DNA from: a virus
Length of the DNA stretch: 42,726 nucleotides
Strand: one strand, 5' to 3'
Virus record (IMG/VR): IMGVR_UViG_3300029566_000029
A program made the position numbers and the translations under genes. Under the pieces are notes generated by a model that had not been told where the DNA came from, made no database searches, and worked only from the letters and a program-made list of their open reading frames with translations. Below are positions 9,054 to 40,919 of this stretch, piece after piece. Every line of letters starts with the position of its first letter. Positions within the stretch are counted from its first letter, which is position 1.

Positions 9054-9074
9054 CGCCCAGAACGGAAGTGAAGA

Positions 9075-9326: not shown

Positions 9327-9337
9327 GGTACAGCTCT

Positions 9338-9532
9338 ATGGGTGATTTTATCAAGAACCTTGCAGCGCTTATCAAGGTGAAAACCATTGTAACGCTGGTG
9401 GTGGTTGCGGTTTTTGCAGTGCTGGCATTGCAAAGCAAATTACAGCCTGACACGGTCATGACCATTGTGACAATGGTCGTGGCCTTTTATTTTGGCACAC
9501 AGACCGAAAGCAAGAACAATAAGGATAAGTAA
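9338..9532 (+). CDS. Holin candidate (64 aa, two TM segments)
   Basis: ATG 9338 lies 8 nt after GTGAGGT. Two hydrophobic helices and a charged C-terminal tail (ESKNNKDK) are present. It is part of the lysis cassette. Confidence 0.6.
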   Translation: MGDFIKNLAALIKVKTIVTLVVVAVFAVLALQSKLQPDTVMTIVTMVVAFYFGTQTESKNNKDK

Positions 9533-9544
9533 GGAGGCGCTTTT

Positions 9545-10407: not shown

Positions 10408-13400
10408 ATGGCTAAAATGAGAAGCCGCACCGAAGCGCTTGTAAATGCCTACCTGAACAATTACCAGAATGCAAACGCTGCTACGGTTAGCGGCGGGCGG
10501 AGTGCGCAGCAAATCGCCCAGAGCCGGGGCAGTGCCATTATGAACGCTACCGACAAAACGCTGCCTGCGCTGAAAGATTACAGTGCTGACGTGCTGAACG
10601 GTATTATAAAGAGTGCCGACAATGCGCAGAACACCGCTATCAGCAATTTTAAGCTGGCGAAAAAGCAGATAGAAGCGGAGCAGAAAGCGGCAGAAAAAGC
10701 GGCGAAAGCAGCGGCGAAAAGTTCCGGGAAATCCAGAAGTAAAAAGTCCGGCAAAAAAAGCAGCAGTACGAGCAGCACAGACGATGCCAGCGGCAACAAT
10801 ACATCGCTAAACAGCTTGTTTGGCGGCGCTGCAAGCACCAGTAGCGGCACGACGGGCAGCACAGCAGGCAGCAAGCCTAAGGCAGATGACACGAAAAAGG
10901 ATAGCGAAAAGACAAAGGGAAAGAGCGCGCAGGAAAAGTATCTGGAATCCAAGAAAGCAGGCGCGCGCACGACCGCTGCAAAGAGTTATGCCGAGCGAAA
11001 CGGGACAGGCCGCGTAAGCGCCGCGCAGCCCGCGCAGAGCCGCGCTGTGGCGCGGGGCGGGAAAGTTATCGGCAGCAGTTACGCCGCCGCAGGAAGCGCC
11101 CCCAGCGCGGCAGAGACGCAGGCCGCAAAGAACAAGCGCAACGACTACAAGAGCCGGCAGGAGGACATTGCCGCTGCGCTTAAAAAGCTGCAGAGCGATG
11201 CGGATTACCGTGCCGAGCTGGCTGCTCCGGGCCGCAAGCTGACTGGCGCCGAAATCCAGGCGGTAAAGGAATATAACCAGAAGCCAGGAGACTTGTACAA
11301 GCAAATGCAGGCCGGCGAACTTTCGCTGGATGACTATAACAAACAGGGGCAGGAACTTGCCCGTATGAACCAAAAAGCCGACCTGCACGGGCTGGGGCAG
11401 GATATGCAGGCGTTTACCGCCGGCCTGATGACATCTGTGCCATTTTTGAAACAGGTGGACAGCGCTATTAAAGATTATGGCAACAAAGCCACCAACGGGC
11501 AATACGGGAAATCCCTTGAAAGCGGAGCTGTGGCAGACTTTTTGCCGGCGCTGGAAAACTCTAAGGAACAAAACCGCATTGCTGCCGGTGCTGGCACAAT
11601 GACCGGCAAAGCGGCGCAGTACAGTTTGTTTAATAACCTGATGGAAGGCACGCCGCTTGCGGAGACGATGGGCAAGGTGGGCGGCAAGGTGGCAGGTGCG
11701 GCCAGCAAGGTGCCCGTACTGGGACAATTTGCCACGCCGGCCGCCGGTGAAGCGCTGGGGCGCATTTTGACCGACCAGACGGCTGATACCGTTTTGGATA
11801 CCGTACCAAGCCTTGTGAACGATTTGCAGACCTACGATGACCAGCAGAGCCGCATCAAGAACGGGGAGCAGGTAGACAATGCCCTGACACCCGGGCAGAT
11901 TGGGCTGAACACGCTGGGCAACGTTGCGCAGAACTTTGCGTTTAACGCTATCCCGGAAGTGGGCGGCGCGGTGCTGAACCGGCTGAAAGGCCCCCTTGAA
12001 AATGCCAAAGCGGCCCGGGATGCGCTGGATGTGGAGCAGGCACGCGGCATGGTAGATGCCTATGAGGGCTTGCAGCAGAACAGCATTGCCCGCCCGGCGG
12101 AGGCCCTGAATGATGTGAATACCAGCATCGACTCAGCATCCGCGTTGAAAGACGGAAGTGCTGTGGATGATACCGGCAGATGGGCTGTGCAGAATGCGGA
12201 GAATTTGCCGATTGACGCACAGCTGGCAGAAGCCTACAATAGAGGCAACGGAGGTGTTGTAAATGACAACTTGGGAGCGGGCGTTCGAGCAGACGTTCCC
12301 GGGAACGCTGACGCTGGCGCAGGCATTGAACAGCAACCCGGAGGAACTGGAAGCGGGATTGCTGGACAAGCTGCAGAAGCAGGGATTGGTAGCACCGCGA
12401 GTGGCAACGGAGCAGGAGTACAAGGAACTGCTGCAGAAAACGCTCAAACGGTGGCTGAGTGGGCAAAATCAATAACCGGCAAGAACCGACAGAGCGTGTA
12501 CACACGGCGCATTGAGGACCTGTATGCCCGGATGCAGAACGGGGCCAGCCGGGATGAGCTTTTGGAAGAAGCCGGAAACATTGCCGCCGGAATTGTGAAA
12601 GAGCGGGACTTTGCGGAGCCGCTGGACGAAGCGACAACGGCTTTGCGGGATTACTTTAAATCGACCCCTGTACGTCTGGATGAAAAGGCGGCAGGGGATA
12701 TTTTGTCGGCCAGCGGGCTGAAAAGCATCCAGCAGTACAATTTCCAGAACGGAACCAACTTCTCGCTGACGAAGGGCGTGCCCTATGATTCGGCCATGAT
12801 GGAGCTGGCGGAGATGGGCACCGGCGTAAAGGGAACATCGGTAGATGACCTGATGGCGGCGGTGCAGAGCAGCAATGCAAAACCGCTGGTGGACATTGAT
12901 ATGGCGGCTGCCAGCACGGACTACTACCGGGACGCGATTTTGAACGGGCCGACCGGGCAGGAGATCGGCGGGGAAGATTTTGAGAACTGGCTGAATGTGC
13001 AATCCTTTGACCGAGATGCACCGGATTATGTACAGCGGCTTTTGGAGCGAGATAGCATCCCCGCGTTGAACCAGACTGCGGAGACAGTGAGTGAACCTGT
13101 TCCCGGTATGGGAACTGCGAATAATGCGCGGCAGGTTGTGCAGGAACAGCCGCTGAACGGCAGCGAGAGTGTACCGAAAAATGCCATTGGTGCGGAAGAA
13201 ACGCAGTATAACAGGGCGGAAGTGCTGAACCAGGACTACGCCAACCAGCGTGTAATGCGGGGCGACATGGATGCCCAGACCGCCGCAGAGCTTGGCATTG
13301 GCGAGCAGACCCACACCGTTTACAGCCGGGCAGAAGGGCGCGACACAGCAGCCCAGGACTTTGATGTACTGGTGCAGCAGACCGGCAGTGTGACCGGAGC

Positions 13401-16400
13401 CGGACGCACAGTGGCAGATGAGCTGAACAGGAAAATCCAGAATGGGCAATGGGATGCTTCCGATGTGTACGCGGGCAGCCATGCGGCAGAACAGCTGCGC
13501 CAGCGTTTGGCAGAACTTCCGGAAGGCAGCGCGGAAGCCGATGTAGTGAAAGCCCAAATTGCGAATATCAACCGCGCCGTAAGCGCCGGGCAGAGCAAGG
13601 CCGGACAGGCACTTGTTTCCGGACGATATGCGCAGCCTGACGAATACAGCGGAATCCGGCGGTTTGAACAGTACACACAGAACAGTGTTGACCGCTTTGC
13701 CAATACGCGGCAGGGTCAACAGCTGCACGATGTAGCGCAGGAAGTTGCCGACACGATGAATGGGCCGATGGATGATGAGTTCACGGCCTTTGTGCATGGT
13801 CAGGGCGTGGACACCGGCGATGATGTGCGTGACCAGCTTGAGTATATGGCCGAGCAAATTCAACGCATGGGCCGCGCACGCAACGTAAACATCAACGAGG
13901 AACAGGCCAGAGCTGCCGCAGCCAGACTGCAGGCAGGTGGCACCGCCGAAGACATTTACGGTGCGTTTGCACGGCAGGCCCTTGGCATCGGCGATTTAAG
14001 TCAGGAAGATTTAGACTATGCCGTTGACACTTTCCGCCGGATTTCGGACATGCCGGACAGCCGGGAGCGTTACGACCTTGAGATGAGTGTTTACGGCCGC
14101 ATGGCAAACTATATGCCTGCGCGCGGGTTTGCAGACAGACTGAATAACATCCGTTACCTGTGCATGCTTGGAAACAGCCGCACGCACATCCGTAACCTGA
14201 TGGGCAATGTCATGATGGGCACGGTAACGCGCGCAAAGGACAATATTGCGGGCGTAATGCAGCTTGCCTTGCCGCAGAACGAACGTACGAAAGCTGTCGG
14301 CACAATGCTAACTGCGGATGGGCGGCGAATGGTAAACCGCGCCAGAGACTACGCGGATAACCAGATGTACAGCATACTGTATCAGGATGGCCGCTGGAAC
14401 ATGGATACCGGGCTGCAGGCCGCACGAAACACCTACACCACGCCTGTTGGGCGAGCGATCGGGCGTTTAAGCGACATCAACGGCGGCGCGCTGGAAGCAG
14501 AGGATAATTTCTTTTTGCGCAGCGCGTTCGGCAACAGCATGGCAAGCTTTTTAAAAGCACGCGGGTATGACAGCAGCATTTTTGACGCTACGAATGAACA
14601 CAGCCGGGCTGTACTGCGGCAGGCTGCGGCGCAAGCGCTTGAAGATGCGCGGGAAGCTACATTCCACGAGGACAACTTTTTGAGCACGGCGTTCCGCAAT
14701 TTTTCAAACGATACGCGGCGGCACGGCCCGGCCGGGCAGCTTGCTTATGCGGTGACGGAAGGCATTTTGCCGTTTAAGAAAACGCCCATCAACATTGCAA
14801 AGAACGCATTGGAGTACAACCCTGTCGGCGGAGCTGTTGAAGCGATCTACCGTGGGGCTACCGGGCAGGGCGCAACGCGGGTCATGGACGCTGCAGCAAA
14901 GGGTGTAACCGGCACAGCAATTTTAGGCGCCGGTTATTTGCTTGCCAAGAATGGTATGCTGACCGGCGGTGCGAGCGGAGATGACCGCGCCGACAACTAC
15001 AATGAAATGCTGGGCGACCAGAATTATGCTGTAAAAATACCCGGGAAGGGGACTTACACGCTGGACTGGGCGAGTCCTTCGAGCGTGCCGCTGTTGATTG
15101 GTGCGCAGATTGCTAAAGACCAGGAAGACGGCGGAGAGTTTAATTTGACGCAGACGCTGGACAGGATGCGCCAGATTACGCAGCCCGTACTAGAAACCAC
15201 GATGCTGCAAGGCTTGAATGACACGCTGGACAGTGTAAGCTATGCAGATTCCAATGACAAGTTGGCAACGCTTGCGACAAGCGCACTGGGCAGCTTTGCA
15301 AACCAGTTTGTGCCTACGGCTTTAGGACAGGTGGCGCGGACGGTGGACGATACCCGGCGCAGCAGCTACGGCGGTGGCGACACAAAGACCGAACGGGATA
15401 TTGGGTACAATATCCGCAAGATGGAGAGCAAAATCCCCGGGCTGAGCAAAGAAAGTGAGCCGTACATTGACCAGTGGGGCCGCGAAGAGGCAAGTCTTGA
15501 CGGAACGGACGATTCAGCGGGAGGCACGTTCCTGCGCGGTGCGTACAACATGCTTAGCCCCGGTTATGTGAGCGCCGAAAACATTACCCCGGTTGACGAG
15601 TACCTGCAGGGGCTGTACGGCAGTACGAACGACAGCCATGTCTTGCCTGAAAAAGCCAGCAGCAAAATTACCGTTGATAGCAAAGACTACTACATGACCC
15701 CGGAGGAAAAGACCGAGTATGCCAAGACGAGCGGGCAGACGGCCTATGACATTATCGACAGTCTGCGGCAGAACGATATGTTTTTGAAGCTGCCGGAGGA
15801 CCAGCAAAGTGCACTTGTGCAGGAAGCATACAGCGTTGCCAAGACCGTTGGCGGCGTGGCGGCTGTGGGTGACGGCGTGAGCGGCACGAACTCGAAAGCC
15901 TACGAAGCGTATCAGCAGGGCGGCGTTCCGACGCTGAAAAGCTATCTGCTTGCCAAAAACGCAACAGATATTGCCAGGGATGAAAAGCGAGAGGCGACAG
16001 GGAGCGATACTGCGAGCCTGGACACGGTGGAGACATGGAATACACTGTACTCGCAGTTTGGTGATGATGCAGTAAGCAACTTTGTAAACAGCACCAGTAA
16101 GGACAGCGTGGTACGCAACATTAGCAACCTTGCCGGAGATAAAGCGGTCACCGCGTACATGCAATCTTACAGCGCTGTTTCAAAAACGCTGGACGATGGG
16201 CAGACACCGGACAAGTTTACGGTCGGTTACGGTATGCAGAAATACGGCCTGAGCGGAAATGACTTTGCCAAAGCATACCTTGCGGCCTATTACAAGAAGA
16301 CCAAAGACGGCAGTTACCCGGATAAGGGCAGCTCTTACGTAGATAAGGCAGGCGCGAACATTTACCAGCAGTACGGTGCGGATGCTCTGCAAAGCTGGGT

Positions 16401-16551
16401 AAACTACCGCGCTACCATTGAGGACGCGAACGGCAACGGCAAAGTCGATAAAGACGAGGCTGTTGCCCGGCTGAACGAAATGAGCCTTACGAACGAACTG
16501 CGCCGCGCCTACCTTACGAACACAAACAAAAGCTGGAAGAATCCCTATTGA
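10408..16551 (+). CDS. Giant 2047-aa virion-associated multidomain protein (internal/ejection or polyvalent-type protein candidate)
   Basis: RBS TAAGGAGG is followed by a single uninterrupted ORF. The N-terminus is K/S-rich and low in complexity. A canonical EF-hand loop DANGNGKVDKDE is encoded at 16423-16458. No tape-measure context is present, because there are no tube or sheath genes. Confidence 0.7.
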   Translation: MAKMRSRTEALVNAYLNNYQNANAATVSGGRSAQQIAQSRGSAIMNATDKTLPALKDYSADVLNGIIKSADNAQNTAISNFKLAKKQIEAEQKAAEKAAKAAAKSSGKSRSKKSGKKSSSTSSTDDASGNNTSLNSLFGGAASTSSGTTGSTAGSKPKADDTKKDSEKTKGKSAQEKYLESKKAGARTTAAKSYAERNGTGRVSAAQPAQSRAVARGGKVIGSSYAAAGSAPSAAETQAAKNKRNDYKSRQEDIAAALKKLQSDADYRAELAAPGRKLTGAEIQAVKEYNQKPGDLYKQMQAGELSLDDYNKQGQELARMNQKADLHGLGQDMQAFTAGLMTSVPFLKQVDSAIKDYGNKATNGQYGKSLESGAVADFLPALENSKEQNRIAAGAGTMTGKAAQYSLFNNLMEGTPLAETMGKVGGKVAGAASKVPVLGQFATPAAGEALGRILTDQTADTVLDTVPSLVNDLQTYDDQQSRIKNGEQVDNALTPGQIGLNTLGNVAQNFAFNAIPEVGGAVLNRLKGPLENAKAARDALDVEQARGMVDAYEGLQQNSIARPAEALNDVNTSIDSASALKDGSAVDDTGRWAVQNAENLPIDAQLAEAYNRGNGGVVNDNLGAGVRADVPGNADAGAGIEQQPGGTGSGIAGQAAEAGIGSTASGNGAGVQGTAAENAQTVAEWAKSITGKNRQSVYTRRIEDLYARMQNGASRDELLEEAGNIAAGIVKERDFAEPLDEATTALRDYFKSTPVRLDEKAAGDILSASGLKSIQQYNFQNGTNFSLTKGVPYDSAMMELAEMGTGVKGTSVDDLMAAVQSSNAKPLVDIDMAAASTDYYRDAILNGPTGQEIGGEDFENWLNVQSFDRDAPDYVQRLLERDSIPALNQTAETVSEPVPGMGTANNARQVVQEQPLNGSESVPKNAIGAEETQYNRAEVLNQDYANQRVMRGDMDAQTAAELGIGEQTHTVYSRAEGRDTAAQDFDVLVQQTGSVTGAGRTVADELNRKIQNGQWDASDVYAGSHAAEQLRQRLAELPEGSAEADVVKAQIANINRAVSAGQSKAGQALVSGRYAQPDEYSGIRRFEQYTQNSVDRFANTRQGQQLHDVAQEVADTMNGPMDDEFTAFVHGQGVDTGDDVRDQLEYMAEQIQRMGRARNVNINEEQARAAAARLQAGGTAEDIYGAFARQALGIGDLSQEDLDYAVDTFRRISDMPDSRERYDLEMSVYGRMANYMPARGFADRLNNIRYLCMLGNSRTHIRNLMGNVMMGTVTRAKDNIAGVMQLALPQNERTKAVGTMLTADGRRMVNRARDYADNQMYSILYQDGRWNMDTGLQAARNTYTTPVGRAIGRLSDINGGALEAEDNFFLRSAFGNSMASFLKARGYDSSIFDATNEHSRAVLRQAAAQALEDAREATFHEDNFLSTAFRNFSNDTRRHGPAGQLAYAVTEGILPFKKTPINIAKNALEYNPVGGAVEAIYRGATGQGATRVMDAAAKGVTGTAILGAGYLLAKNGMLTGGASGDDRADNYNEMLGDQNYAVKIPGKGTYTLDWASPSSVPLLIGAQIAKDQEDGGEFNLTQTLDRMRQITQPVLETTMLQGLNDTLDSVSYADSNDKLATLATSALGSFANQFVPTALGQVARTVDDTRRSSYGGGDTKTERDIGYNIRKMESKIPGLSKESEPYIDQWGREEASLDGTDDSAGGTFLRGAYNMLSPGYVSAENITPVDEYLQGLYGSTNDSHVLPEKASSKITVDSKDYYMTPEEKTEYAKTSGQTAYDIIDSLRQNDMFLKLPEDQQSALVQEAYSVAKTVGGVAAVGDGVSGTNSKAYEAYQQGGVPTLKSYLLAKNATDIARDEKREATGSDTASLDTVETWNTLYSQFGDDAVSNFVNSTSKDSVVRNISNLAGDKAVTAYMQSYSAVSKTLDDGQTPDKFTVGYGMQKYGLSGNDFAKAYLAAYYKKTKDGSYPDKGSSYVDKAGANIYQQYGADALQSWVNYRATIEDANGNGKVDKDEAVARLNEMSLTNELRRAYLTNTNKSWKNPY

Positions 16552-29328: not shown

Positions 29329-29356
29329 TATTTCACCTCCGAATACTAAGTTTAGC

Positions 29357-29385
29357 TTGACAACTTAGCAAAGCGGTTGTATTAT
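29357..29385 (+). promoter_or_regulatory. Rightward promoter TTGACA-17-TATTAT
   Basis: The -35 is at 29357-29362 and the -10 at 29380-29385, with an exact 17-nt spacer. An operator abuts the -35 and another lies in the spacer. Confidence 0.6.
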
Positions 29386-29459
29386 TGAATTGCGATATAC
29401 AATAATTTTTGTAGGCCCACAACAGGTTTTGCGGGTTCTGCTTTTGCTTTGCTAAACTT

Positions 29460-29488
29460 AGTATATCCTAAGTTTAGCAAAAAGTCAA
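29460..29488 (-). promoter_or_regulatory. Leftward promoter TTGACT-17-TATACT
   Basis: On the minus strand the -35 is at 29483-29488 and the -10 at 29460-29465, with a 17-nt spacer that contains an operator copy. Confidence 0.6.
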
Positions 29489-29546
29489 TGCATAACTTAG
29501 CATTTCCTAAGTAGGGCAAAATCTGCACAAAAGGACGGATTTTGCT

Positions 29547-29924
29547 ATGAGTGAACAAAAAACACCGCTTGATAATGCACCCATTGATAACGCACCGATT
29601 ATTAAAAGAATAGAAATTCTGCTTGCAGTGAAGGAAGCTACAAAAGCAGACTTTTACAAACAGACAAGCGTATCATCGGCAACTTATGCGCAATGGAACG
29701 CGAACCAGTATAAGCCAAGCAGGAAAAAGCTACAGGCGATAGCTGAATATTTCGGCGTAACCGTTGACTACTTGTTGACGGGGGAGCAAAAAGAAAACCC
29801 CACCAGCGTTGCCGCTGATGGGGTGGATGAGCTTGATAAAGAGGCGCTGAACATTATGCACCAGCTGCCGCCGGAGAAGCGGGCGGCGGGTCTGGCGATG
29901 CTGCGAGGGCTTTTAAATAATTAA
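29547..29924 (+). CDS. CI-like XRE-family repressor without a peptidase domain
   Basis: The HTH_3 core is IKRIEILLAVKEATKADFYKQTSVSSATYAQWNANQYKPSRKKLQAIAEYFGVTVDYLL. The protein is only 125 aa and has no S24 Ser/Lys module. Confidence 0.8.
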   Translation: MSEQKTPLDNAPIDNAPIIKRIEILLAVKEATKADFYKQTSVSSATYAQWNANQYKPSRKKLQAIAEYFGVTVDYLLTGEQKENPTSVAADGVDELDKEALNIMHQLPPEKRAAGLAMLRGLLNN

Positions 29925-30367: not shown

Positions 30368-31123
30368 ATGCCGAAACCGTTAGTCTTTTGGCGTACTGAT
30401 GAAGAGGATGACTATGTACACACAGAAAAAGACTGTGTAGAAATAGTCAATGCAAAGACGGTACAATGTGGGGCGATTGAGGATGCGCAACGGAGCGGGC
30501 ATACAAGAGCTTGCCCATACTGCCAGAGAGCGCGGAATTTACCAGAGAGAAAAGAAGCCGCTGTTGTAAAAATTAAGGCGGACGCGCCAGCAGTACAAAA
30601 AGCTCCCGTATTGATTGCAACGCTTGCAGCTGTTGCGTGTACATGGCTGTGTTGCTTGTTATACTATAATGAGCAAAGCACAGATATAAAAAATGCTGCA
30701 TATAACGATGGGTATGTTGCAGCAGAAACGGATTATTCGGAAACGTACGAAAGCCGTTACCGCGAAGGGTATGACACAGGTAAATCCGCAGGTTATGACT
30801 ATGGAAAACGCGAAGGATATACAAGCGGATACGCTGAAGGATATACAAAAGGGAAAGATTCTGTAGATACCGATTCAAGCTATCAGGACGGATATAACAA
30901 CGGCTATAACAAAGGATACGATGCCGGTTATGATGACGGTGCCGGAAGCTATAGCCAATACAGTGCACCACAAAGCAGTTATACATATACTGTTTATATC
31001 ACCGCAACAGGGAACAAATATCATGCGGCGGGGTGCCAGTATCTTAAAAAGAGCAGTATCCCTATAGATATAAACCAAGCAATATCGCAAGGATACACGG
31101 CATGCAGTCGATGCAATCCGTAA
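30368..31123 (+). CDS. Membrane moron protein: duplicated His/Cys motif domains, one TM helix, GY-repeat region
   Basis: RBS AAGAGGTGG. The N-terminus carries YVHTEKDC...ACPYC. The TM segment is VLIATLAAVACTWLCCLLYY. Repeats include EGYDTGKSAGYDYGKREGYTSGYAEGYTKG...GYNNGYNKGYDAGYDDG. The C-terminus carries KYHAAGCQYL...GYTACSRCNP. Confidence 0.7.
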   Translation: MPKPLVFWRTDEEDDYVHTEKDCVEIVNAKTVQCGAIEDAQRSGHTRACPYCQRARNLPERKEAAVVKIKADAPAVQKAPVLIATLAAVACTWLCCLLYYNEQSTDIKNAAYNDGYVAAETDYSETYESRYREGYDTGKSAGYDYGKREGYTSGYAEGYTKGKDSVDTDSSYQDGYNNGYNKGYDAGYDDGAGSYSQYSAPQSSYTYTVYITATGNKYHAAGCQYLKKSSIPIDINQAISQGYTACSRCNP

Positions 31124-31228: not shown

Positions 31229-32371
31229 ATGGCAAGAGCAAAAGCGCGGGCCGATGGGCTGATTGAACGAACAAAAACCTACGACGGCAAGCGGGTACAC
31301 TTTTACGGCAAGACCGCGAAAGAGGTCGCCGCAAAAATTGAAGAGTACGAACGCCAGCGGGAAGAAATGAAAGAGAACGGCCCACTGTTTGAGGATGTGG
31401 CCGGTGAATGGTGGGAGACCCATTCAAAAAATATCAAGACAGGCGCTGAAAGAGCCTACAAGGGCAGCTACAAGGCCGCGCTGGAAGAGTTTAGCGGGTA
31501 CAGAATGAAAGAGATAACCCCTGCTGTGGTGTCGCTGTGGGGCGAGAAATTCAAGGCCGCAGGCTATGCAGGGAAGACGGCAAGCAACGCCCGGAGCGTG
31601 TTGTCTTGCGTGTTCAAGTTTTGGTGCGTCCGGGATGGCGAAACATACAACCCGGTAACAGTTACAGATTTGCCGCGAGGAATGAAAAAGGAGCGCCGGG
31701 AGCCTCCAACGGTGGAACAGCTGGAAACGGTCAAGGCACACCCGGAAGGGTTCGGGCTGTGTGCCTGGCTGTTCATGTACACCGGCTGCAGGTTGGGCGA
31801 GGTGCTGGCTCTGCAGTGGGGGGATGTGGATTTTGAAAACAACAAGATCGTCGTCAACAAGGAAGTCGCATGGGTAAATGCGAAGCCCGTTGTACAAACA
31901 CCGAAAACCGCAAACGGTGTGCGAGTAGTGCCGCTGCTGACACCGCTGCGGGCCGTGCTGGAGCCGTTGAAGGGCGGCAAGAATGATTTTATATTAAGCG
32001 GGAAAAAACCGCTTAAAAGCTACGAATACCATAATAATTGGCTGCGCTATTGTGTTGCTGTCGGCATGGCTGAAATAGATGCAAAAGCAGAGGCAGCACG
32101 AGAACGGAAGCGGGCCGCAGCTGCCGGAGGGTCAGAACGGAAAAAGCAGTGCAAGACGCACTGCTACAAGGCCAGCGTAACGGCACACCAGTTCCGGCAC
32201 GAGTATGCCAGCATGTTATATGCTGCAGGCATCGGAGAAATGGAAGCTCAAAAGCTGATGGGGCATGCCGATATATCTACGACACGGAAAGTTTACACGC
32301 ATATCCGAGAACGACAGCTAAACGGAGCGGCGGAAGCTCTCGAAAAATTTATAAACGATAATACGAAATAA
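31229..32371 (+). CDS. int: Tyrosine recombinase / phage integrase
   Basis: The catalytic region is GCRLGEVLAL...HQFRHEYASMLYAAG...LMGHADISTTRKVYTHI (R...H-x-x-R...Y). The gene lies adjacent to attP. Confidence 0.95.
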   Translation: MARAKARADGLIERTKTYDGKRVHFYGKTAKEVAAKIEEYERQREEMKENGPLFEDVAGEWWETHSKNIKTGAERAYKGSYKAALEEFSGYRMKEITPAVVSLWGEKFKAAGYAGKTASNARSVLSCVFKFWCVRDGETYNPVTVTDLPRGMKKERREPPTVEQLETVKAHPEGFGLCAWLFMYTGCRLGEVLALQWGDVDFENNKIVVNKEVAWVNAKPVVQTPKTANGVRVVPLLTPLRAVLEPLKGGKNDFILSGKKPLKSYEYHNNWLRYCVAVGMAEIDAKAEAARERKRAAAAGGSERKKQCKTHCYKASVTAHQFRHEYASMLYAAGIGEMEAQKLMGHADISTTRKVYTHIRERQLNGAAEALEKFINDNTK

Positions 32372-32377
32372 ATTTCA

Positions 32378-32410
32378 AACCGGCTGTTCCAAAAACAGCC
32401 GGTTTTTTTA
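32378..32410 (+). terminator. Rho-independent terminator after int
   Basis: An 11-bp stem, AACCGGCTGTT / AACAGCCGGTT, is followed by TTTTTTT. Confidence 0.85.
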
Positions 32411-32465
32411 CGACGTTTTTACGACACTAGTACAAGAATTACTGCGTTTACGACATGTTTACGAC
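32407..32465 (+). repeat. attP arm-type repeats, left arm (4 x TTTACGAC)
   Basis: Direct copies occur at 32407, 32418, 32447 and 32458, as two pairs spaced 11 bp apart. Confidence 0.7.
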
Positions 32466-32510
32466 CTGTTTTTTTACTGTTTAGGACGTAAAAAGACATA
32501 CAAAAACAAG

Positions 32511-32557
32511 AAAAAAGCGCGTTGCAAAGTGAATTTGCTTTGCCAACGCGCTTTTTT
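32511..32557. terminator. Bidirectional terminator in attP region
   Basis: AGCGCGTTGCAAAG / CTTTGCCAACGCGCT forms a stem with one bulge, flanked by an A-run and a T-run. Confidence 0.7.
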
Positions 32558-32560
32558 AGG

Positions 32561-32587
32561 TGGAGCTAGTAACAGGAATCGAACCTG
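32561..32587 (-). other. attP core: 3' end of a tRNA gene (T-arm, acceptor strand, CCA)
   Basis: The reverse complement is CAGGTTCGATTCCTGTTACTAGCTCCA, comprising a GTTCGATTC T-loop region, a 7-nt acceptor strand, a discriminator and CCA. No matching 5' half lies upstream, so this is a fragment and not a gene. Confidence 0.75.
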
Positions 32588-32621
32588 AATAGATTGACGA
32601 TATACAGTCAATAATAAAACA

Positions 32622-32693
32622 TCTACGACTTAATTACGACTGTTCAAAATAATAAAGCCGCCCAATATGAGCGGCTTCTTGTTCAGTCGTAAA
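32622..32693. repeat. attP arm-type repeats, right arm
   Basis: TCTACGAC occurs at 32622 and ATTACGAC at 32633, 11 bp apart. An inverted copy, GTCGTAAA, lies at 32686-32693. Confidence 0.6.
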
Positions 32694-32850
32694 GTTCATT
32701 AAACCATATCGGACCGAAGCGGTAGCTGATGACGTAGCCGGAGCCGGACGGGCCGACGGGTTGCGCGTTGAGCATCGCAGCGCGACATCCAGCAGCGAAG
32801 GACGCCGCCAGCGCGGCGGCGATGATGATGGCGGCAAATGCTTTCTTCAT
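32683..32850 (-). CDS. Small lipoprotein (55 aa)
   Basis: ATG 32850 follows AAGGAGG. The signal peptide and lipobox are MKKAFAAIIIAAALAASFAAGC. It is the last gene before attP. Confidence 0.7.
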   Translation of the reverse strand: MKKAFAAIIIAAALAASFAAGCRAAMLNAQPVGPSGSGYVISYRFGPIWFNELYD

Positions 32851-32855
32851 GGTGT

Positions 32856-33233
32856 TTAGTCCTCCTTGTTGGCTCTTCGGATGATCTCGGCCAGAATCTT
32901 GTCGCGGTTCTCGTTTGTGGCGGGCAGCATCCAATCGAAGTCAAGCACCAGGCGCTTGCCGCTCTCGTGTAGCTTGGTGGTGGGGTTGTAGCGGCCCCAG
33001 CATCCGCGCTCATCGTAAACGTAAACATCTACAGACCAGTAGGACGGCAGCACGTAGGAAATGAAGCCGTGACGGTGCCAGAGGTTGGGCAAGCTATTTT
33101 TATAGCTGTTGTCGGGGTGGATGGCGGTAAAATCAACCGCGACGGTTTCGCCGCGCGGGGTAGTCCCGGCGAAGTTGTAGGTGGTGAGCGTGGCGGTTCG
33201 CTCTTGGATGGTGCAATCTTTCAAGTCGATCAT
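32856..33233 (-). CDS. Hypothetical protein (125 aa)
   Basis: ATG 33233 follows AAAGGAG. The 174-aa track version lacks an RBS. Confidence 0.6.
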   Translation of the reverse strand: MIDLKDCTIQERTATLTTYNFAGTTPRGETVAVDFTAIHPDNSYKNSLPNLWHRHGFISYVLPSYWSVDVYVYDERGCWGRYNPTTKLHESGKRLVLDFDWMLPATNENRDKILAEIIRRANKED

Positions 33234-33303
33234 GTTATTAACTCCTTTTCTGTTTTTGGATATGGGGCGAGGCTGCTTTGCGCTGTGCAGCCCTGCGAGA
33301 GTT

Positions 33304-33768
33304 TCAGCGGTGGACAAGTCCATAATAGAAGTGCTGCAGGCCGTGACGGACAAAAGCCATATATAGCAGCCCTTGTGCATCGCTGCTGTGCGGTTCGCCC
33401 ATCAAAAAACCCTTGTGACCATCGCGGCGCAGATCGCGCGGCAGGCTGTACGGTGGCATGCAGTTCAGCATATCGTCATACACATCGGCGGTAATGGCCT
33501 GGCCTGGGCGGGCGTTAAACGTTCCACTGCGCTCCCAGTCGGCGCGGGTGTAGGTGCCGGCGGTGGGCCGGTCGGCGGCCAGGTCGCAGTAGTGGTTGAA
33601 AATCAAGCGGGCGTCCTTCGGGTCGTGGGTGTGGTAGCACTCGATTTCCAGGCCGTCGGGGTACATGGCCATTACTTCAATATAGCCACATTCGGCGGTG
33701 AGGTCTGCCGCGTCGATGATGATCTTGCGGCCTTGCCAGGTGGTTTCGGTGTGGTGTAGGGTTTTCAT
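33304..33768 (-). CDS. Hypothetical protein (154 aa)
   Basis: ATG follows AAAGGAG. I recognise no motif. Confidence 0.65.
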   Translation of the reverse strand: MKTLHHTETTWQGRKIIIDAADLTAECGYIEVMAMYPDGLEIECYHTHDPKDARLIFNHYCDLAADRPTAGTYTRADWERSGTFNARPGQAITADVYDDMLNCMPPYSLPRDLRRDGHKGFLMGEPHSSDAQGLLYMAFVRHGLQHFYYGLVHR

Positions 33769-33834
33769 GGTGTAAATCTCCTTTTCAATTTTGTAGTGGG
33801 ATAGGGTCGCTTTGCTGTGCGGCCCTGCAAGGTA

Positions 33835-34368
33835 TCAGGCGGGAATGGTTTCGCGGTCGCGGGTCTGGTAGCTCTGGCCGCTGTACTTGTTATAGATGTC
33901 TTGGTAGCTGGCTTTACGGTTCCGGCGGCTGGTGTCGCCGGTGGGGTGCCAGTAGTACTTGCAGCGGTTAGCAGACCAACGGAAACCGAGCTTCTCGAGG
34001 GTGTGAAGCCACTTGTGGTTTGTGTCGGCCCAAATCCAGGAGCCGACAACGTCGAACTGCAAACCGGGGCACTTGGCCAGCTCTTCGACCATCTTGACGG
34101 TCTCTGCATCTTGCGCGGCCTTGGCGGCATCATCTGCCGCTTTGGTCTGCTCGTACTGCTGGCGGCCTTGCTTGGCCTGCTCACTGCAGAAGCGGGGAAG
34201 CGTGGGCTTCAGCTCGTCCCATTCGGCGTTGATTTCCTGCATGTCGGAGACGCTTCCGCCGTGATCGGGGTGATGCTTGCTGGCTAGGTCTCGATACATC
34301 GCGGTGCCTTCGGTGATGGTGCTGGGGCGGGGGTTAAACCATTTATATGTTTTATATGTGGTAGTCAT
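33835..34368 (-). CDS. J-domain (DnaJ-like HPD) protein
   Basis: ATG 34368 follows AGGAGG. The J-domain core is YRDLASKHHPDHGGSVSDMQEINAEWDEL, with HPD encoded at 34264-34272. The C-terminus is GSWIWADTNHKWLHTLEKLGFRWSANRCKYYWHP. Confidence 0.7.
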   Translation of the reverse strand: MTTTYKTYKWFNPRPSTITEGTAMYRDLASKHHPDHGGSVSDMQEINAEWDELKPTLPRFCSEQAKQGRQQYEQTKAADDAAKAAQDAETVKMVEELAKCPGLQFDVVGSWIWADTNHKWLHTLEKLGFRWSANRCKYYWHPTGDTSRRNRKASYQDIYNKYSGQSYQTRDRETIPA

Positions 34369-34419
34369 TTTGTAGGCCTCCTGTTTTGTTTGGTGGGGTT
34401 GTTTGCTTTCGATGTCTGT

Positions 34420-34448
34420 ATTATACATGCTAGCATGAACAATGTCAA
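34420..34448 (-). promoter_or_regulatory. Leftward consensus promoter TTGACA-17-TATAAT for the J-domain operon
   Basis: On the minus strand the -35 is at 34443-34448 and the -10 at 34420-34425. The 17-nt spacer contains the palindrome CATGCTAGCATG. Confidence 0.7.
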
Positions 34449-34522
34449 CATGCTATCATGAAGATTGGAGAAATGCACAATAATGCTAGCATGAATTTAT
34501 GCGATTTGTACATGCTTGCATG
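34426..34522. promoter_or_regulatory. Four palindromic operators (CATGCTAGCATG family)
   Basis: The copies are 34426-34437 CATGCTAGCATG, 34449-34460 CATGCTATCATG, 34482-34493 AATGCTAGCATG and 34511-34522 CATGCTTGCATG. Confidence 0.75.
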
Positions 34523-34544
34523 ATTCGGCGCTCTGTGCTATAAT
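34516..34544 (+). promoter_or_regulatory. Rightward promoter TTGCAT-17-TATAAT for the RHH gene
   Basis: The -35 is at 34516-34521, inside the operator 34511-34522. The -10 is at 34539-34544. Confidence 0.65.
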
Positions 34545-34574
34545 GTGGGTACTATACAAAAGGAGGCACGCAGA

Positions 34575-34775
34575 ATGTCCACCGATGCAAAACGGGCCGG
34601 GAATGCGCGATACTTGGCAAAGCTGAAAACTATTACAGTAAGGATGCAGCCGGATACAGCGGAAACTATCCAGCAGGCAGCAGCAGCAGCCGGGGAAAGC
34701 GTGAACGGCTATATCCTGGCGGCGATTGATGAGCGCATGCAACGCGAAAACCACGATAAACCGAAAAACACTTGA
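34575..34775 (+). CDS. Ribbon-helix-helix (Arc/Mnt/CopG-like) repressor
   Basis: ATG 34575 follows AAGGAGG. KTITVRMQPDTAETIQQAAAAAGESVNGYILAAIDERM fits the beta-strand/helix/helix pattern. Palindromic operators lie adjacent. Confidence 0.7.
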   Translation: MSTDAKRAGNARYLAKLKTITVRMQPDTAETIQQAAAAAGESVNGYILAAIDERMQRENHDKPKNT

Positions 34776-34801
34776 CAAAATCGCACTTGCATGCTAAAAT
34801 G
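34772..34801 (+). promoter_or_regulatory. Rightward promoter TTGACA-17-TAAAAT plus fifth operator copy
   Basis: The -35 at 34772-34777 overlaps the RHH stop codon. The -10 is at 34795-34800. CATGCTAAAATG at 34790-34801 matches the operator at 10 of 12 positions. Confidence 0.6.
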
Positions 34802-34897
34802 TGTATAATGAGCGAACCACGCGAGGAAGCGAGCTTCCGCGACGGGGCTCACTCATTATACAGTTTTAACGTATCAACGCGAAAAATTGGGTTTCTG

Positions 34898-34928
34898 GCG
34901 TCCAGCTTTACCGCTGGGCGCTTTTTTT
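34898..34928 (+). terminator. Intrinsic terminator in the leader upstream of terS
   Basis: A 9-bp stem, GCGTCCAGC / GCTGGGCGC (one G-U), is followed by TTTTTTT. It ends 26 nt before the terS ATG. Confidence 0.75.
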
Positions 34929-34953
34929 GTTGCTATAAAAGGAGGGCGGCAAC

Positions 34954-36240: not shown

Positions 36241-37060
36241 GCTGCATAGCTGACCATTTTGGTGACGTTACCAAGATGGTATGAGCGCTGCGTTCCGAAG
36301 CAACGGCGCGGCAAAGGTGCAAGACCTATGTGCAGTACCAATGCCGATGATACGGGTAAAGGTAGCAGGGCCGGACGCTGCAATTGTGTTCCCCGTTAGG
36401 CAACCGCCACGAGCCTACTGACAGTGCGTAACATGTGGCGGGTTCTGCAATACAGGGTGGCTCTCTGCCGTGGAAGTCGGCCAACTTTAGCTGAAACATT
36501 GCTATGGATTGCCAAGCCAAACAGGTTCATGCCGATATGCCCCGCTAAAGAAATTTGCAGGGCAGAGCGCATGAGCCTTATATGCCAACATAGCTTAACT
36601 GGTAAAGCCGGGCCTTATGACAGCATAGCTGCGGGTTTAGTTGTAGGTTCAAATCCTGCTGTTGGCGAAAGCTGGGTCGCTCCCACCGGTGAAAGCCCGG
36701 CGCAGGCAAAACGCGATAGATCAACCTAAACGCTGTAAGCAAAGCGGCAAGCCGATCAGGAGCGCGGCGCGATGGCAAGACGCAACGGGACTTCGAGAGC
36801 CTGAAAAAGTCTGCCCGGCATCTGCTTGTGCGGACTCCGTTACTGACGCAGTTACGCATCGCCGAAACCCATTACATCAAAGCAGAACCGCGAATCCGCA
36901 CGCGGGGGATAAATGCAGCGGATGAAAAAAACGTGTGGACAGCAGGCACGTTAAATTCTGACTGTACAAAAGCGTTGCGGATTTGCTCACCGCAACGGGT
37001 GAGACCGGCACAGCATAAACCGGTAGGGCGGGTATGGGGAATTTTGAGGTAGAGAAATGG
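36241..37060 (+). ncRNA. Candidate large structured ncRNA (boundaries approximate)
   Basis: No RBS-preceded ORF is present on either strand in an otherwise tightly packed genome, and the composition is GC-rich. Helices paired by hand are 36253-36280, 36285-36309, 36402-36444 and 36973-36997. Many GNRA-type loops are present, plus an embedded tRNA-like cloverleaf. Confidence 0.5.
36584..36667 (+). ncRNA. tRNA-like element with non-canonical anticodon arm
   Basis: The 7-bp acceptor stem is GCCAACA / TGTTGGC. The D-arm is GCTT-AACTGGTA-AAGC. The T-arm is GTAGG-TTCAAAT-CCTGC. The anticodon position holds a 29-nt arm (GGGCC...GGTTT with an inner CAGC-ata-GCTG hairpin) in place of a 5-bp stem and 7-nt loop. 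CCA is not encoded. Confidence 0.5.
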
Positions 37061-37224: not shown

Positions 37225-38718
37225 GTGTTGACGCTGGAAGAGATGCGGGAGCTTGAGCGCGAGGCGTGCAGGAAAGACCCGGTGTATTTTTGCGAAACAT
37301 ATTGCCACATTGAGGACAAGGACGCAGATGAGCTGATACAGCCGTTTACGCTGTGGGATGGGCAAAAGAAAGCACTGGTCGTGTTTGCCGAGAACCGGCT
37401 TGTTTGCGTGCTGAAAGCGCGTCAGTTGGGCTTTACATGGCTGGCGCTGGCAGAGGTGGCGCGGCTTGTGGCGCTGAATACAGGCCGTACCGCCATAGGT
37501 TTGAGCCGGTCAGAGGACGAGGCCAAAGAGCTTGTGCGCCGCTTGGCTGTGATACTGCGGTACATGCCGGGGCTTATCCGCGAAGTGGACACGCCGGGCG
37601 GCAGCGTTGCAGGCTGGACAGGGCCGGTATTCTACAAAAGCACAATGCAGGTGGTTGTGATGTGGCCGGACGGCCCGGAGAGCGTGTTTAAGGCGTTCCC
37701 ATCCAGCCCTGCGGCTGGCCGTTCGTTTACTGCCGACTTGATTGTGATAGACGAATGGGCGTTCCAGCAGTATGCCGAAGAGATTTGGCAGGCTGCATAC
37801 CCGGTTATCAACCGACCGTTCGGCGGGCGGGTCATCGGCTTGTCTACTATCAAGCTGGGAACGCTGTTTGAGGAAATCTACACGAACCCCGGCAACGGCT
37901 TTACCAAGCTGTTTTTGCCCTGGTCAACTGACCCGCGCCGTACCGAAAAATGGTACGCACAGACGGTCGCTGCGCTGGGCGAGGATAAAACGATGCAGGA
38001 GTACCCTGCAACAGAGGAAGAAGCGCTCTCCGCCCCCGGAGGGCGCTTTTTTAGTGAGCTTGATAAAGATGCCCACTTGGTTGATGCACCGCCCACAGGG
38101 CCGCTAAGACGCTATGTGGCGATAGATTATGGCCTTGATATGTTGGCGGCAATCTGGATTGCCGTTGACCCGAACAACCATGCAACGGTGTACCGGGTAG
38201 ACGGCGGGCCGAACAAGACCATTGGCGAAGCGGCGGATTTGATTTTGCGAGATTCCGAAGGCGAAGAAATTGATATGTACCTTGCGCCGCCTGATTTGTG
38301 GAACCGCAGCCAGGAGAGCGGCAAGAGCCGTGCGCAGCTGTTCAGCGAAGCGCATCTGCCGTTGGTGCAAAGTTCCCGCGATTTTCCTGCCGGGTGTGCG
38401 GCCATGAAACAGTGGCTGCGCAAGGACGAGAAAACAGGGAAAGGGTATCTGACGTTCTATAAGCCGGGCAAGTTGTGGACGTGCCTGACGAAGATACAGA
38501 AAGACGACAAAAATGCCGACGTGTATGCGAAAAATCCGCATGGATTGACGCATTTCCCGGATGCTTTACGCTATTTTTGCGTTTGGTGGACGAGCCCGGC
38601 GAAAAAGCCGGTGAATATCAAAAAGCGGCCGTGGACGGCAGATATGTACGAGGACTACCGAAATGCCAATGCGGAAGAGCGAAAGATGCTGATGGAAAGG
38701 TGGGGACACCCTGCATGA
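37225..38718 (+). CDS. terL: Terminase large subunit
   Basis: Walker A-like VLKARQLGFTW and Walker B LIVIDEWAF are present, with nuclease-domain Asp motifs (YVAIDYGLD). The start is GTG 37225, or ATG 37243. Confidence 0.9.
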   Translation: MLTLEEMRELEREACRKDPVYFCETYCHIEDKDADELIQPFTLWDGQKKALVVFAENRLVCVLKARQLGFTWLALAEVARLVALNTGRTAIGLSRSEDEAKELVRRLAVILRYMPGLIREVDTPGGSVAGWTGPVFYKSTMQVVVMWPDGPESVFKAFPSSPAAGRSFTADLIVIDEWAFQQYAEEIWQAAYPVINRPFGGRVIGLSTIKLGTLFEEIYTNPGNGFTKLFLPWSTDPRRTEKWYAQTVAALGEDKTMQEYPATEEEALSAPGGRFFSELDKDAHLVDAPPTGPLRRYVAIDYGLDMLAAIWIAVDPNNHATVYRVDGGPNKTIGEAADLILRDSEGEEIDMYLAPPDLWNRSQESGKSRAQLFSEAHLPLVQSSRDFPAGCAAMKQWLRKDEKTGKGYLTFYKPGKLWTCLTKIQKDDKNADVYAKNPHGLTHFPDALRYFCVWWTSPAKKPVNIKKRPWTADMYEDYRNANAEERKMLMERWGHPA

Positions 38719-39917: not shown

Positions 39918-40919
39918 ATGGCAGTTATTTTTAGTAAATCCAGCGGCGCAGCCAATGATTATTGGAACGAATGGGCCGACATGATCCAGATGAAGATGAA
40001 GGACACCGACAACGAGAAGAACAACGACGACGAGCTTGTCAATGCCCTGTTCAACGTGAAGAAGTCCAAGCGTTTTGGTGAGAAGATCGCGGGCCTGTCT
40101 ACCTTTGGCAACTTTGAGGTTGTGGACGAGGGCGCAGAAGCTCCGGCCGATACCCTGAAAGAGACTGAGCCCAAGCTGATTACCCACAGCGAGTTCAAGA
40201 AACTGTTTGAAGTCACCAAGACCATGAAAGAGGACTTGCAGTTTGACATTGCTGCTACCAAGGCAGCCGCCAATGTACGCTCCTACAAGCGCAGCCGTGC
40301 AGAGTTTGGCAGCAACGCGCTGACCAGTGCCGCCAAGACCTTTACCTACGGCAGCAAGACCGGACTGGACAGCACCACCGCCGACGGCCTGGCCCTGTTT
40401 GATAAGGCGCATACCGGCCTGACCGGCGTTGCGACCCAGTCCAACGTGTTTACCAATGCCTTTGGCAATGACGACGCCATGCTGAACCGCCTTGCCAACA
40501 TTGGCATGAACTTTAAAAACGCCACCGGCCATGTGATGGGCTACACCTTCGATACCCTGATCGTGCCCGGCAACGCCTACCGCCTGATTACGTTGGGCAA
40601 AAAGATCATCAACAGTGACCAGCAGGTTGGCAGCAACTACAACGATGCAAACGTGAACAAGGGCATGTGGAAGCTTGTAGTTGACCACCATTGGCAGTGC
40701 GCAGATGGCACCGAGCCGTACATCATCATGTCCAGCCAGGCCAACAAAGACCTGATGGGCAACATGTTCTACGACCGTACCCCGCTGGAAATTGAGCAGG
40801 ATGTGGATGTGCGCACCCAGAACCTGATTTCCAGCTGCCGCTGCCGTTTCAGTGTCGGTTTTGGCGATTGGCGTCACATCCTGCTCGGAGGCGCCGCTGC
40901 CGGTACGGAGTTGACCTGA
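39918..40919 (+). CDS. Major capsid protein
   Basis: The product is 333 aa with RBS AAAGGAG. It follows the scaffold gene and a strong terminator lies downstream. I recognise no sequence motif, so the call rests on size and position. Confidence 0.7.
   Translation: MAVIFSKSSGAANDYWNEWADMIQMKMKDTDNEKNNDDELVNALFNVKKSKRFGEKIAGLSTFGNFEVVDEGAEAPADTLKETEPKLITHSEFKKLFEVTKTMKEDLQFDIAATKAAANVRSYKRSRAEFGSNALTSAAKTFTYGSKTGLDSTTADGLALFDKAHTGLTGVATQSNVFTNAFGNDDAMLNRLANIGMNFKNATGHVMGYTFDTLIVPGNAYRLITLGKKIINSDQQVGSNYNDANVNKGMWKLVVDHHWQCADGTEPYIIMSSQANKDLMGNMFYDRTPLEIEQDVDVRTQNLISSCRCRFSVGFGDWRHILLGGAAAGTELT

Follow-up and report, generated by a model that had tools for sequence, protein, structure and literature searches.

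The DNA analyzed here, 42,726 nt of one strand from the IMG/VR record IMGVR_UViG_3300029566_000029 and called the window in the following, is according to its gene assignments the circularly permuted genome of a temperate phage. As the best reading, its hosts are gut bacteria of the Oscillospiraceae (Gemmiger/Allofournierella type). An accessory module (32654–34775), flanked by attP and the packaging genes, consists of a four-gene operon on the minus strand (g1–g4) and a divergent gene encoding a small ribbon-helix-helix (RHH) protein. Within the operon, a J-domain protein is encoded first and a putative lipoprotein last, two orphan genes stand between them, and two of the spacers harbor hairpins resembling the RNA motif RAGATH-5. 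With somewhat more confidence than doubt, we regard this module as a transiently expressed cassette array for entry or host manipulation, which is gated by the RHH protein, led by the J protein and delimited by the RAGATH-5 hairpins.

The features of the module are listed in Table 1. An earlier note on this DNA, in the following the original prediction, had described four minus-strand genes with strong ribosome-binding sites behind a perfect consensus promoter carrying an operator, and all of this is found at the locus. Every ATG is preceded at a distance of 8–10 nt by GGAGG or AAGGAG, which for g4 is located within the end of g3. The first gene starts at ATG 34368; an upstream in-frame ATG at 34428 falls inside the promoter. 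This promoter, which contains a perfect palindrome in its spacer, is one of only two promoter-like sites returned by a scan of 2.7 kb. The tight gene spacing that had also been claimed applies to g3 and g4, which are separated by 5 nt, but not to g1–g2 and g2–g3, where spacers of 66 and 70 nt each contain a structured RNA motif.

Table 1. Features of the operon, its divergent regulator gene and the remaining phage genome (positions in the window).
Feature	Position	Strand	Remarks
g1	34368–33835	-	177 amino acids; J protein
g2	33768–33304	-	154 amino acids; orphan
g3	33233–32856	-	125 amino acids; orphan
g4	32850–32683	-	55 amino acids; putative lipoprotein precursor
Operon promoter TTGACA-17-TATAAT	34448–34420	-	12/12 match to sigma-70 consensus
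Terminator-like hairpin	32678–32654	-	closes the operon; 11-pair stem, then T-rich tail
RAGATH-5-like hairpin, copy 1	33790–33839	-	from the g1 TGA stop codon; RF02685 43.0 bits
RAGATH-5-like hairpin, copy 2	33256–33308	-	from the g2 TGA stop codon; RF02685 43.5 bits
RHH gene (putative repressor)	34575–34775	+	66 amino acids, Arc/CopG-like; divergent from operon; ATG 34575 behind AAGGAGG
Putative RHH promoter TTGCAT-17 nt-TGcTATAAT	34516–34544	+	extended -10; read from sequence
O1	34426–34437		perfect CATGCTAGCATG; inside operon-promoter spacer
O2	34449–34460		abuts operon-promoter -35
O3	34482–34493		operator palindrome
O4	34511–34522		overlaps -35 of RHH promoter
Presumed CI/Cro operators	29343–29520		inverted repeat GCTAAACTTAGTAT/ATACTAAGTTTAGC; 3–4 copies between leftward Cro-like gene and CI
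CI	29547–29924		helix-turn-helix only, without peptidase domain; lysogeny region
Integrase	31229–32371	+	adjoins attP
attP	32400–32650		between integrase and g4; arm-type repeats and tRNA-3'-end-like core
Tail, fibre and lysin genes	1–17 kb	+	
Early and replication genes	17.5–28.7 kb	-	include DnaD-like loader, DnaB and NinB
TerL	37225–38718		packaging/head region
Capsid gene	39918–40919		packaging/head region

The operon had been called repressor-gated in the original prediction. Comparison with related phages supports the gating, but CI is ruled out as the gate: its presumed operators of the GCTAAACTTAGTAT type differ from the palindrome found at the operon. Instead, the divergent RHH protein is the candidate regulator. 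In Pfam, it matches TacA1 with 27.9 bits (cut-off 21) and, below the respective cut-offs, NikA-like (26.8 bits), HicB, RHH_1 and Arc. A profile of its family, compared with the sequences of the PDB, ranks Arc of phage P22 as the best match, with ParG, NikA and TacA also at the top.

The operator is a 12-bp palindrome, CATGCTAGCATG, of which four copies with 0–1 mismatches lie at 34426–34522; no further copy at this stringency exists elsewhere in the window. In the integrated relative L001, the operators occupy the same positions. Among the close relatives, at least six RHH alleles are present, with most of their differences in an N-terminal region that corresponds in the alignment to the DNA-reading beta-strand of Arc. 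Each allele is paired with its own palindrome in three to four copies at the same positions, and the promoter hexamers are kept. Here, CATGCTAGCATG belongs to allele A, ACGTAGACGT to B, AACCGTTAACGGT to C, CATGnnnCATG to D, TACTCCGTAGTA to E and GCATACTCGTAC to F. The RHH protein of a Gemmiger gallinarum DSM 109015 prophage (L005), with 57% overall identity, has the same beta-strand (KTITLRM) and retains the palindrome of allele A. Because six RHH alleles co-vary with six palindromes at fixed positions, we infer that the divergent RHH protein is the cognate repressor of the operon. The geometry of the operators further suggests that silencing would affect the operon first and that autoregulation of the RHH gene would follow, since the spacer of the operon promoter contains the perfect O1, O2 adjoins the -35 of the operon and O4 overlaps that of the RHH promoter. 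The latter promoter is a putative one, of which the -35 shows 3/6 matches only and which is absent from the list of the promoter scan.

A role of the RHH protein in controlling the strong promoter that directly follows its gene was rejected, as this region, including an operator-like CATGCTAAAATG, is invariant across the alleles. The constancy of this promoter and its leader suggests that only the divergent promoter pair is under control of the RHH protein. The region itself (34772–34935, plus strand) contains a promoter TTGACA-17-TAAAAT with a TG element, followed by a long hairpin (34803–34861) and an intrinsic terminator (34897–34922). It lies directly before the first packaging-side gene, is conserved whatever RHH allele is present and has a folding z-score of -4.7. 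The changes that the hairpin shows in relatives appear compensatory. It looks like a late-operon leader or an antitermination target.

A second element of the module is formed by the motifs in the two long spacers, which agree with RAGATH-5 both in the hairpin and in the conserved single-stranded sequence flanking it. The E-values of the Rfam model RF02685 are 3e-5 (local) and 6.7e-4 (whole window) for copy 1, and 2.3e-5 and 5.3e-4 for copy 2, respectively. A search model made in this analysis from 23 copies of the motif (R1) scores 67 bits for copy 1 and 77.6 bits for copy 2. Every related locus contains one or two R1 matches, without exception within the operon and on its coding strand; the other matches of this model are weak (13–17 bits, E 0.035–0.64) and fall into coding or flanking sequence. 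Within the stem, six out of ten pairs are changed on both sides. The covariation score of 0.30 compares with 0.14 in shuffles, none of 500 of which reaches it, and with at most 0.10 in slid controls, and the result is unchanged on 111 distinct copies.

Where the window and its relatives cease to be homologous, the breakpoints coincide with the edges of this motif. L011 is missing precisely the segment bounded by the ends of copies 1 and 2, in L010 an extra cassette is inserted at the end of copy 1, and L013 begins to diverge from the window just past copy 1. The RAGATH-5 hairpins thus mark points at which cassettes are gained, lost and swapped among related phages. RAGATH-5 itself is said to have been derived from the gene neighborhoods of twister and hammerhead ribozymes. 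To our knowledge, no biological role has been established for RAGATH-5, nor for the twister, twister-sister and hammerhead ribozymes that occur near it in bacteria. In the literature searched, nothing functional on RAGATH-5 was found, nor a description of the intercistronic, stop-codon, cassette-boundary and RHH-gated setting. The locus gives RAGATH-5 a defined setting: it is intercistronic, starts at stop codons, lies at cassette boundaries, and stands behind one strong promoter and an RHH protein as the putative repressor. The intercistronic motifs, the exchange of g2 and g3 as cassettes and the occurrence of the J family on conjugative plasmids are new with respect to the original prediction.

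The first gene of the operon had been described as carrying a minimal J domain with an HPD motif, and this description holds. The HPD motif (H33-P34-D35, 34272–34264) is invariant in 17 close homologues, and a set of 30 diverse family members shows no change in H or P and at least 90% conservation of D. Within the protein, a minimal J domain (helix II, HPD, helix III) is followed by a linker helix (63–98) and a C-terminal alpha/beta domain with the motifs WIW, LKxLGFRWS and YWH. The homologues retain the YRxLA and INAEW helices as well as the C-terminal GSWIW...LGFRWS...YYWH domain, of which the motifs are invariant. When the profile of g1 is compared with the PDB, all matches with E below 0.025 are J domains. 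In the AlphaFold2 model (predicted local distance difference test, pLDDT, 82), the J helices span residues 18–32 and 40–56. Foldseek superimposes this hairpin on Tim14 with a root-mean-square deviation of 1.1 Å over 40 residues (probability 0.98) and also on DnaJ and the J domains of polyomavirus T antigens; the E-values for this short domain are weak. For the C-terminal domain, Foldseek gave no match. The protein matches phrog_15863 with E 1.5e-17 over residues 5–169, as do all 30 sampled family members, 28 of which also match Pfam DnaJ (E<=0.01, best 1e-8) and three, weakly, DUF5710. Because of the invariant HPD, the Foldseek matches to J domains and the 28 of 30 members matching Pfam DnaJ, the assignment of g1 as a J-domain protein of truncated ('minimal') type is supported by sequence and model. 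A recruitment of DnaK by this protein is plausible.

The family is large, with 3,003 representative clusters at E<=1e-3 and 831 at E<=1e-10, and most members are 150–185 amino acids long among the 150 matches listed. It is found mainly outside of phages: a tblastn search located homologues in 2,719 plasmids, 2,209 of them conjugative, and in only 14 records of isolated phages. The J proteins of IncX4, IncI2, pCF10-like Enterococcus and Acinetobacter MOBF plasmids share the two-domain architecture with g1 at 25–47% full-length identity. Their genes are likewise embedded in same-strand runs of small uncharacterized genes, near genes for relaxases or coupling proteins, ssb and toxin-antitoxin pairs, and in one case AcrIIA9. 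However, the neighbors of the plasmid genes show no homology to g2–g4, and neither an RHH gate nor a RAGATH-5 copy was found in the plasmid loci scanned (L007, L008); distant J-carrying phages gave no match to R1 either. Roughly 2,700 sequenced plasmids carry this family, including the IncX4 and IncI2 plasmids with mcr-1 and the IncX3 plasmids with NDM, and yet it is not known to have been characterized. A phage operon in a culturable host would offer a second system to find the DnaK client of the family, and Gemmiger gallinarum DSM 109015 has a related prophage (L005).

A comparable case might be Rki of phage RB43, which is reportedly a phage J-domain protein acting on DnaK and stabilizing sigma-32. 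Both are small phage proteins with an N-terminal J domain, a C-terminal part of uncharacterized fold and a presumed redirection of DnaK. In contrast to Rki, g1 belongs to phrog_15863 with its WIW/GFRWS domain, is encoded by a temperate Firmicute phage, is apparently repressor-gated and stems from a mainly plasmid-borne family. In a second, unrelated phage lineage of low GC content (L045 and about 40 similar IMG/VR contigs), the J gene is also divergent from a small DNA-binding gene. In L045 (4568–5429), this partner is by eye apparently a helix-turn-helix and not an RHH protein, and a gene resembling that of the large terminase lies about 2 kb from the J gene, again by eye.

A J protein could also serve replication or establishment, by directing DnaK to the DnaD-like loader and the DnaB helicase of the phage or to another nucleoprotein complex. 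The lambda P/DnaB complex, P1 RepA and R6K pi need DnaK together with DnaJ. The phage does encode a DnaD-like loader and DnaB, the J genes of IncX4 and IncI2 plasmids are found a few kb from the replication initiator, and the C-terminal domain of g1 weakly resembles DUF5710, a domain that occurs on primases and topoisomerases. However, g1 is located 23–27 kb from the replication module, under a separate repressor, and its neighbors are not replication genes but swappable orphans and a lipoprotein gene. The copies on Enterococcus and Acinetobacter plasmids are moreover found in transfer-proximal clusters and not at the replicon. A replication helper therefore appears very improbable to us, and the J protein is discussed below as leading a cassette array for entry or host manipulation.

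The two middle genes had been reported to lack any recognizable motif, and this remains the case: profile searches of g2 and g3 against the PDB gave no match, nor did the library searches return anything usable. For g3, structure prediction is confident (AlphaFold2, pLDDT 95.1, predicted template modeling score 0.87), but Foldseek found no solved structure that matches this model (best E 0.46, TM-score 0.30). There are 116 homologues of g3, none of which has a Pfam domain, and 46 of g2, one of them named from Agathobaculum; the homologues of both are restricted to phages. The g2 protein consists of two parts. Its N-terminal ~68 amino acids are common with a 180-amino-acid protein of L005, and its C-terminal ~85 amino acids also occur at the N-terminus of other proteins.

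Both genes are exchangeable. In L001, L009, L011, L013 and others, g2 is absent or replaced, and the interval between the J and the lipoprotein gene holds, depending on the relative, g2 and g3, g3 alone, a 109-amino-acid alternative, an extra RHH gene or a 301-amino-acid protein. The C-terminus of the latter has the sequence LKxxGFRWSxxxxxW in common with the C-terminal domain of the J protein (hhalign probability 85%, E 7e-6).

This exchange also bears on a different interpretation, in which the module resembles immI of phage P22 (Mnt, Pant, Arc, Ant) and acts against immunity. In the manner of Mnt and Arc, which control Ant in P22, the RHH protein would restrain an antirepressor, and the J protein, with or without g2 and g3, would deliver the peptidase-less CI to DnaK for unfolding, so that de-repression induces the prophage or lets an incoming phage overcome immunity. 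Several features resemble immI: a small Arc-type RHH gene and a very strong promoter are arranged divergently, both promoters are overlapped by operators, and the module lies apart from the CI/Cro immunity region. Furthermore, the heteroimmunity-like diversification of RHH proteins and operators is what an arms race over anti-immunity predicts, and CI does lack a peptidase domain. The window differs from immI in that no homologue of Ant is present, the first gene encodes a J protein and not Arc, a lipoprotein gene comes last, and four operators instead of two and at least six specificity alleles are found.

The original prediction had suggested that the operon may include the antirepressor which such a CI would need, and this suggestion is not supported. 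No match to the antirepressor families (Ant, KilAC, Bro-type) was obtained for g1–g4 in Pfam, PHROG or NCBIfam. In L013, CI is 100% identical to that of the window and both g2 and g3 are absent, which speaks against them as the obligatory antirepressor. The J protein in turn does not co-vary with CI, since it is 90–98% identical where CI falls to 39–57% (L032, L016), and its family is mostly borne on plasmids, where CI is absent. Read by eye, no box of the LexA type is seen at the promoter and thus no SOS link is evident. An anti-immunity module consequently seems quite improbable. The six co-varying pairs of RHH protein and operator suggest a possible immunity layer separate from CI in abundant gut Firmicute phages.

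The last gene had been described as having a signal peptide and a lipobox, and both are confirmed as a reading of the sequence pattern. The precursor starts with MKK, followed by the hydrophobic stretch AFAAIIIAAALAASF, the lipobox SFAAG|C with Cys22 and a mature part of ~34 amino acids. In 20 distinct variants, the lipobox Cys is invariant and the motif SYRxGxxWxNxxY is kept. The product of g4 is thus a conserved putative lipoprotein, a reading supported by its sequence, and its lipidation is predicted from the same pattern. An identity as AimP/arbitrium peptide was rejected: the match reaches 28.1 bits (NCBIfam cut-off 35), covers only residues 1–29, the signal peptide, and has no AimR-like gene nearby. 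In the prophage L005, genes for a PemK/MazF-like toxin and a SocA/Panacea antitoxin follow directly after the operon (8895–9793, minus strand).

By analogy, superinfection exclusion by g4 is plausible. The exclusion lipoproteins Llp of T5, Ltp of TP-J34 and Cor of phi80 are similarly encoded by phages, carry a signal peptide and a lipobox and have no role in the virion. In contrast to these, g4 belongs to a phage of a monoderm relative of Clostridia, shares no sequence similarity with them and is with its ~34 mature residues shorter than Llp (~61) and Ltp (~120, with repeat domains).

Alternatively, the operon could be a classical lysogenic-conversion moron, which the prophage expresses steadily under autoregulation and in which the lipoprotein mediates superinfection exclusion or alters the surface, the cytoplasmic proteins being unrelated cargo. 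Like a moron, the operon has its own promoter and terminator, lies between functional modules, at the prophage end beside host DNA, and varies in its content, namely the middle genes, among relatives. In addition, the conservation of the lipoprotein, whose lipobox is invariant, ranks second among the members, and toxin-antitoxin cargo stands alongside in some relatives (PemK and SocA/Panacea in L005). Nevertheless, a perfect operator within the promoter predicts strong repression once the RHH protein is present, the mature lipopeptide is small and unlike Ltp, Llp or Cor-type proteins, and it is the J gene, not the lipoprotein gene, which is always first and which is the member common to plasmids. 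Steady lysogenic conversion is therefore unlikely in our view.

For the RHH-gated cassette array which we favor, the following working can be proposed. The consensus promoter of the host type would drive all four genes up to the terminator, and the RHH protein would bind the four 12-bp palindromes, O1 and O2 covering the operon promoter and O4 its own. Because the perfect O1 lies inside the operon promoter, the operon would fire in a burst when the DNA enters a cell without RHH protein and then be shut off as this protein builds up; silencing is also expected where a resident prophage has matching RHH specificity. The HPD hairpin of g1 is expected to dock on the DnaK of the host and to trigger its ATPase, with the C-terminal WIW/GFRWS domain supplying a client. 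The genes g2 and g3 are exchangeable orphan cassettes, g4 would encode a small secreted lipoprotein and most plausibly an envelope or exclusion factor, and the RAGATH-5 hairpins, starting from the upstream stop codons, would delimit the cassettes.

Several observations weigh against this proposal. The transient early burst is a prediction from the operator geometry, and tight repression of the operon agrees poorly with an exclusion lipoprotein, which would be expected in the lysogen. For g2–g4, searches of Pfam, PHROG, NCBIfam and PADLOC gave nothing usable. The J domain of g1 is truncated, with helices I and IV absent and helix II less basic than that of DnaJ; its match to Pfam DnaJ (PF00226) reaches 14.6 bits, below the threshold of 27.8, and covers profile positions 19–47 of 63. 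No functional study of the phage and plasmid J family was found in the literature searched. Both RF02685 matches are full-length (1–53 of 53), yet the two copies are divergent RAGATH-5 members and stay below the gathering score of 50. Their folding stability is unremarkable (z -0.8 and -1.2), so thermodynamic support is weak; the case for RAGATH-5 is carried by the covariation and the Rfam model.

Similar arrays extend beyond the window and its close relatives. In IMG/VR, a pattern scan returned at least 120 stretches, on which R1 finds at least 167 copies in at least 75 loci, forming same-strand arrays of up to nine copies spaced 0.3–1.5 kb apart. Arrays in other gut phages contain 4–9 copies that reach the Rfam gathering score, with 52–72 bits per copy. 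Among the matches listed (80 loci), 32 contain an RHH homologue, 23 the 301-amino-acid protein and 10 the J protein. A divergent arrangement of array and RHH gene is seen in 22 of these 32 loci; as in the window, most of them have a TTGACA promoter ~120–135 nt from where the RHH gene starts. The cargo, again among the matches listed, falls into 45 clusters, mostly without a known family. When 23 cargo representatives were compared with Pfam, strong matches to DUF4942 and FtsK/SpoIIIE and weaker ones to an ECF-sigma/HTH protein and AAA/STAND-type NTPase domains were obtained. A 403-amino-acid array protein, by eye similar to ArdC, was dropped as such because Pfam did not confirm this. Accessory cassette arrays of this apparently RHH-gated kind are widespread in gut Firmicute phages. 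In one same-strand RAGATH-5 array of another gut phage contig (L111), a twister-sister ribozyme (78.6 bits) lies at 6909–6988 on the minus strand.

These arrays are reminiscent of integron cassette arrays, in which promoterless cassettes on the same strand are separated by an imperfect-hairpin repeat, are read from one upstream promoter and are gained or lost at the repeat. In contrast to integrons, an integron integrase is missing: the only tyrosine recombinase is the phage integrase, and its matches to models of integron integrases are weak and sub-threshold. The repeat is 50–60 nt long and carries the signature of an RNA motif, RAGATH-5 and not attC. Plain homologous recombination between the repeats could exchange the cassettes.

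As a broader speculation, RHH-gated arrays punctuated by RAGATH-5 might be the phage counterpart of the leading regions of plasmids and of integron arrays, expressed first and shuffled fast. RAGATH-5 and adjacent self-cleaving ribozymes would then be intercistronic signals of RNA processing or insulation as well as recombination joints at which cassettes are exchanged. The J protein and the 301-amino-acid protein would hijack a common host target, DnaK in the case of J, via the C-terminal GFRWS-type module common to both for establishment or anti-defence, and the pairs of RHH protein and operator would be a second immunity, which silences the arrays of incoming relatives. As a whole, we consider this extension rather unlikely.

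In the phage genome, the operon reads toward attP and had been expected to sit at the extreme end of the prophage. This is borne out by the integration junction of L001, where the homologous operon is the final phage DNA, followed by the tRNA-Pro and the ATP synthase operon of the host. Relatives come from Gemmiger sp., Gemmiger gallinarum DSM 109015 and Allofournierella massiliensis, and a DNA similarity search with the window gave no match among isolated phages. In close relatives (IMG/VR loci), the order is conserved, with TerL, orf184 and the RHH gene on one side and the J gene, variable genes, lipoprotein gene, attP and int on the other. The core of attP, which resembles a tRNA 3' end, was read from the sequence at 32559–32587 on the minus strand. 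Four arm-type repeats GTCGTAAA lie at 32407–32465, and five of the six copies of GTCGTAAA in the window are located at 32.4–32.7 kb, where 0.8 copies are expected window-wide.

Some further features were noted on the way. A D12-methyl RNA (Rfam RF02950, 36973–37036, plus strand), located ~190 nt ahead of the gene for the large terminase, scores 90.9 bits against a gathering score of 57. It is preceded by an 86-nt tRNA-His with the unusual anticodon ATG (36583–36668, plus strand; ARAGORN), for which the Rfam tRNA model gives 47 bits. Between CI and the integrase, a 251-amino-acid protein (30368–31123, plus strand) combines zinc-ribbon-like, Cys-rich ends with a single hydrophobic segment and a repeat region rich in Tyr, Gly and Asp, and gave no informative family match. 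The tail region contains a single open reading frame of 2,047 amino acids (10408–16551, plus strand), which adjoins collagen-like fibre genes and an endolysin/peptidase gene. Finally, the plus-strand GC skew at 33001–34000 is +0.18, the coding (minus) strand of the operon being C-rich. This sign is that of the plus-strand gene blocks, so that the skew does not track the transcription direction here.

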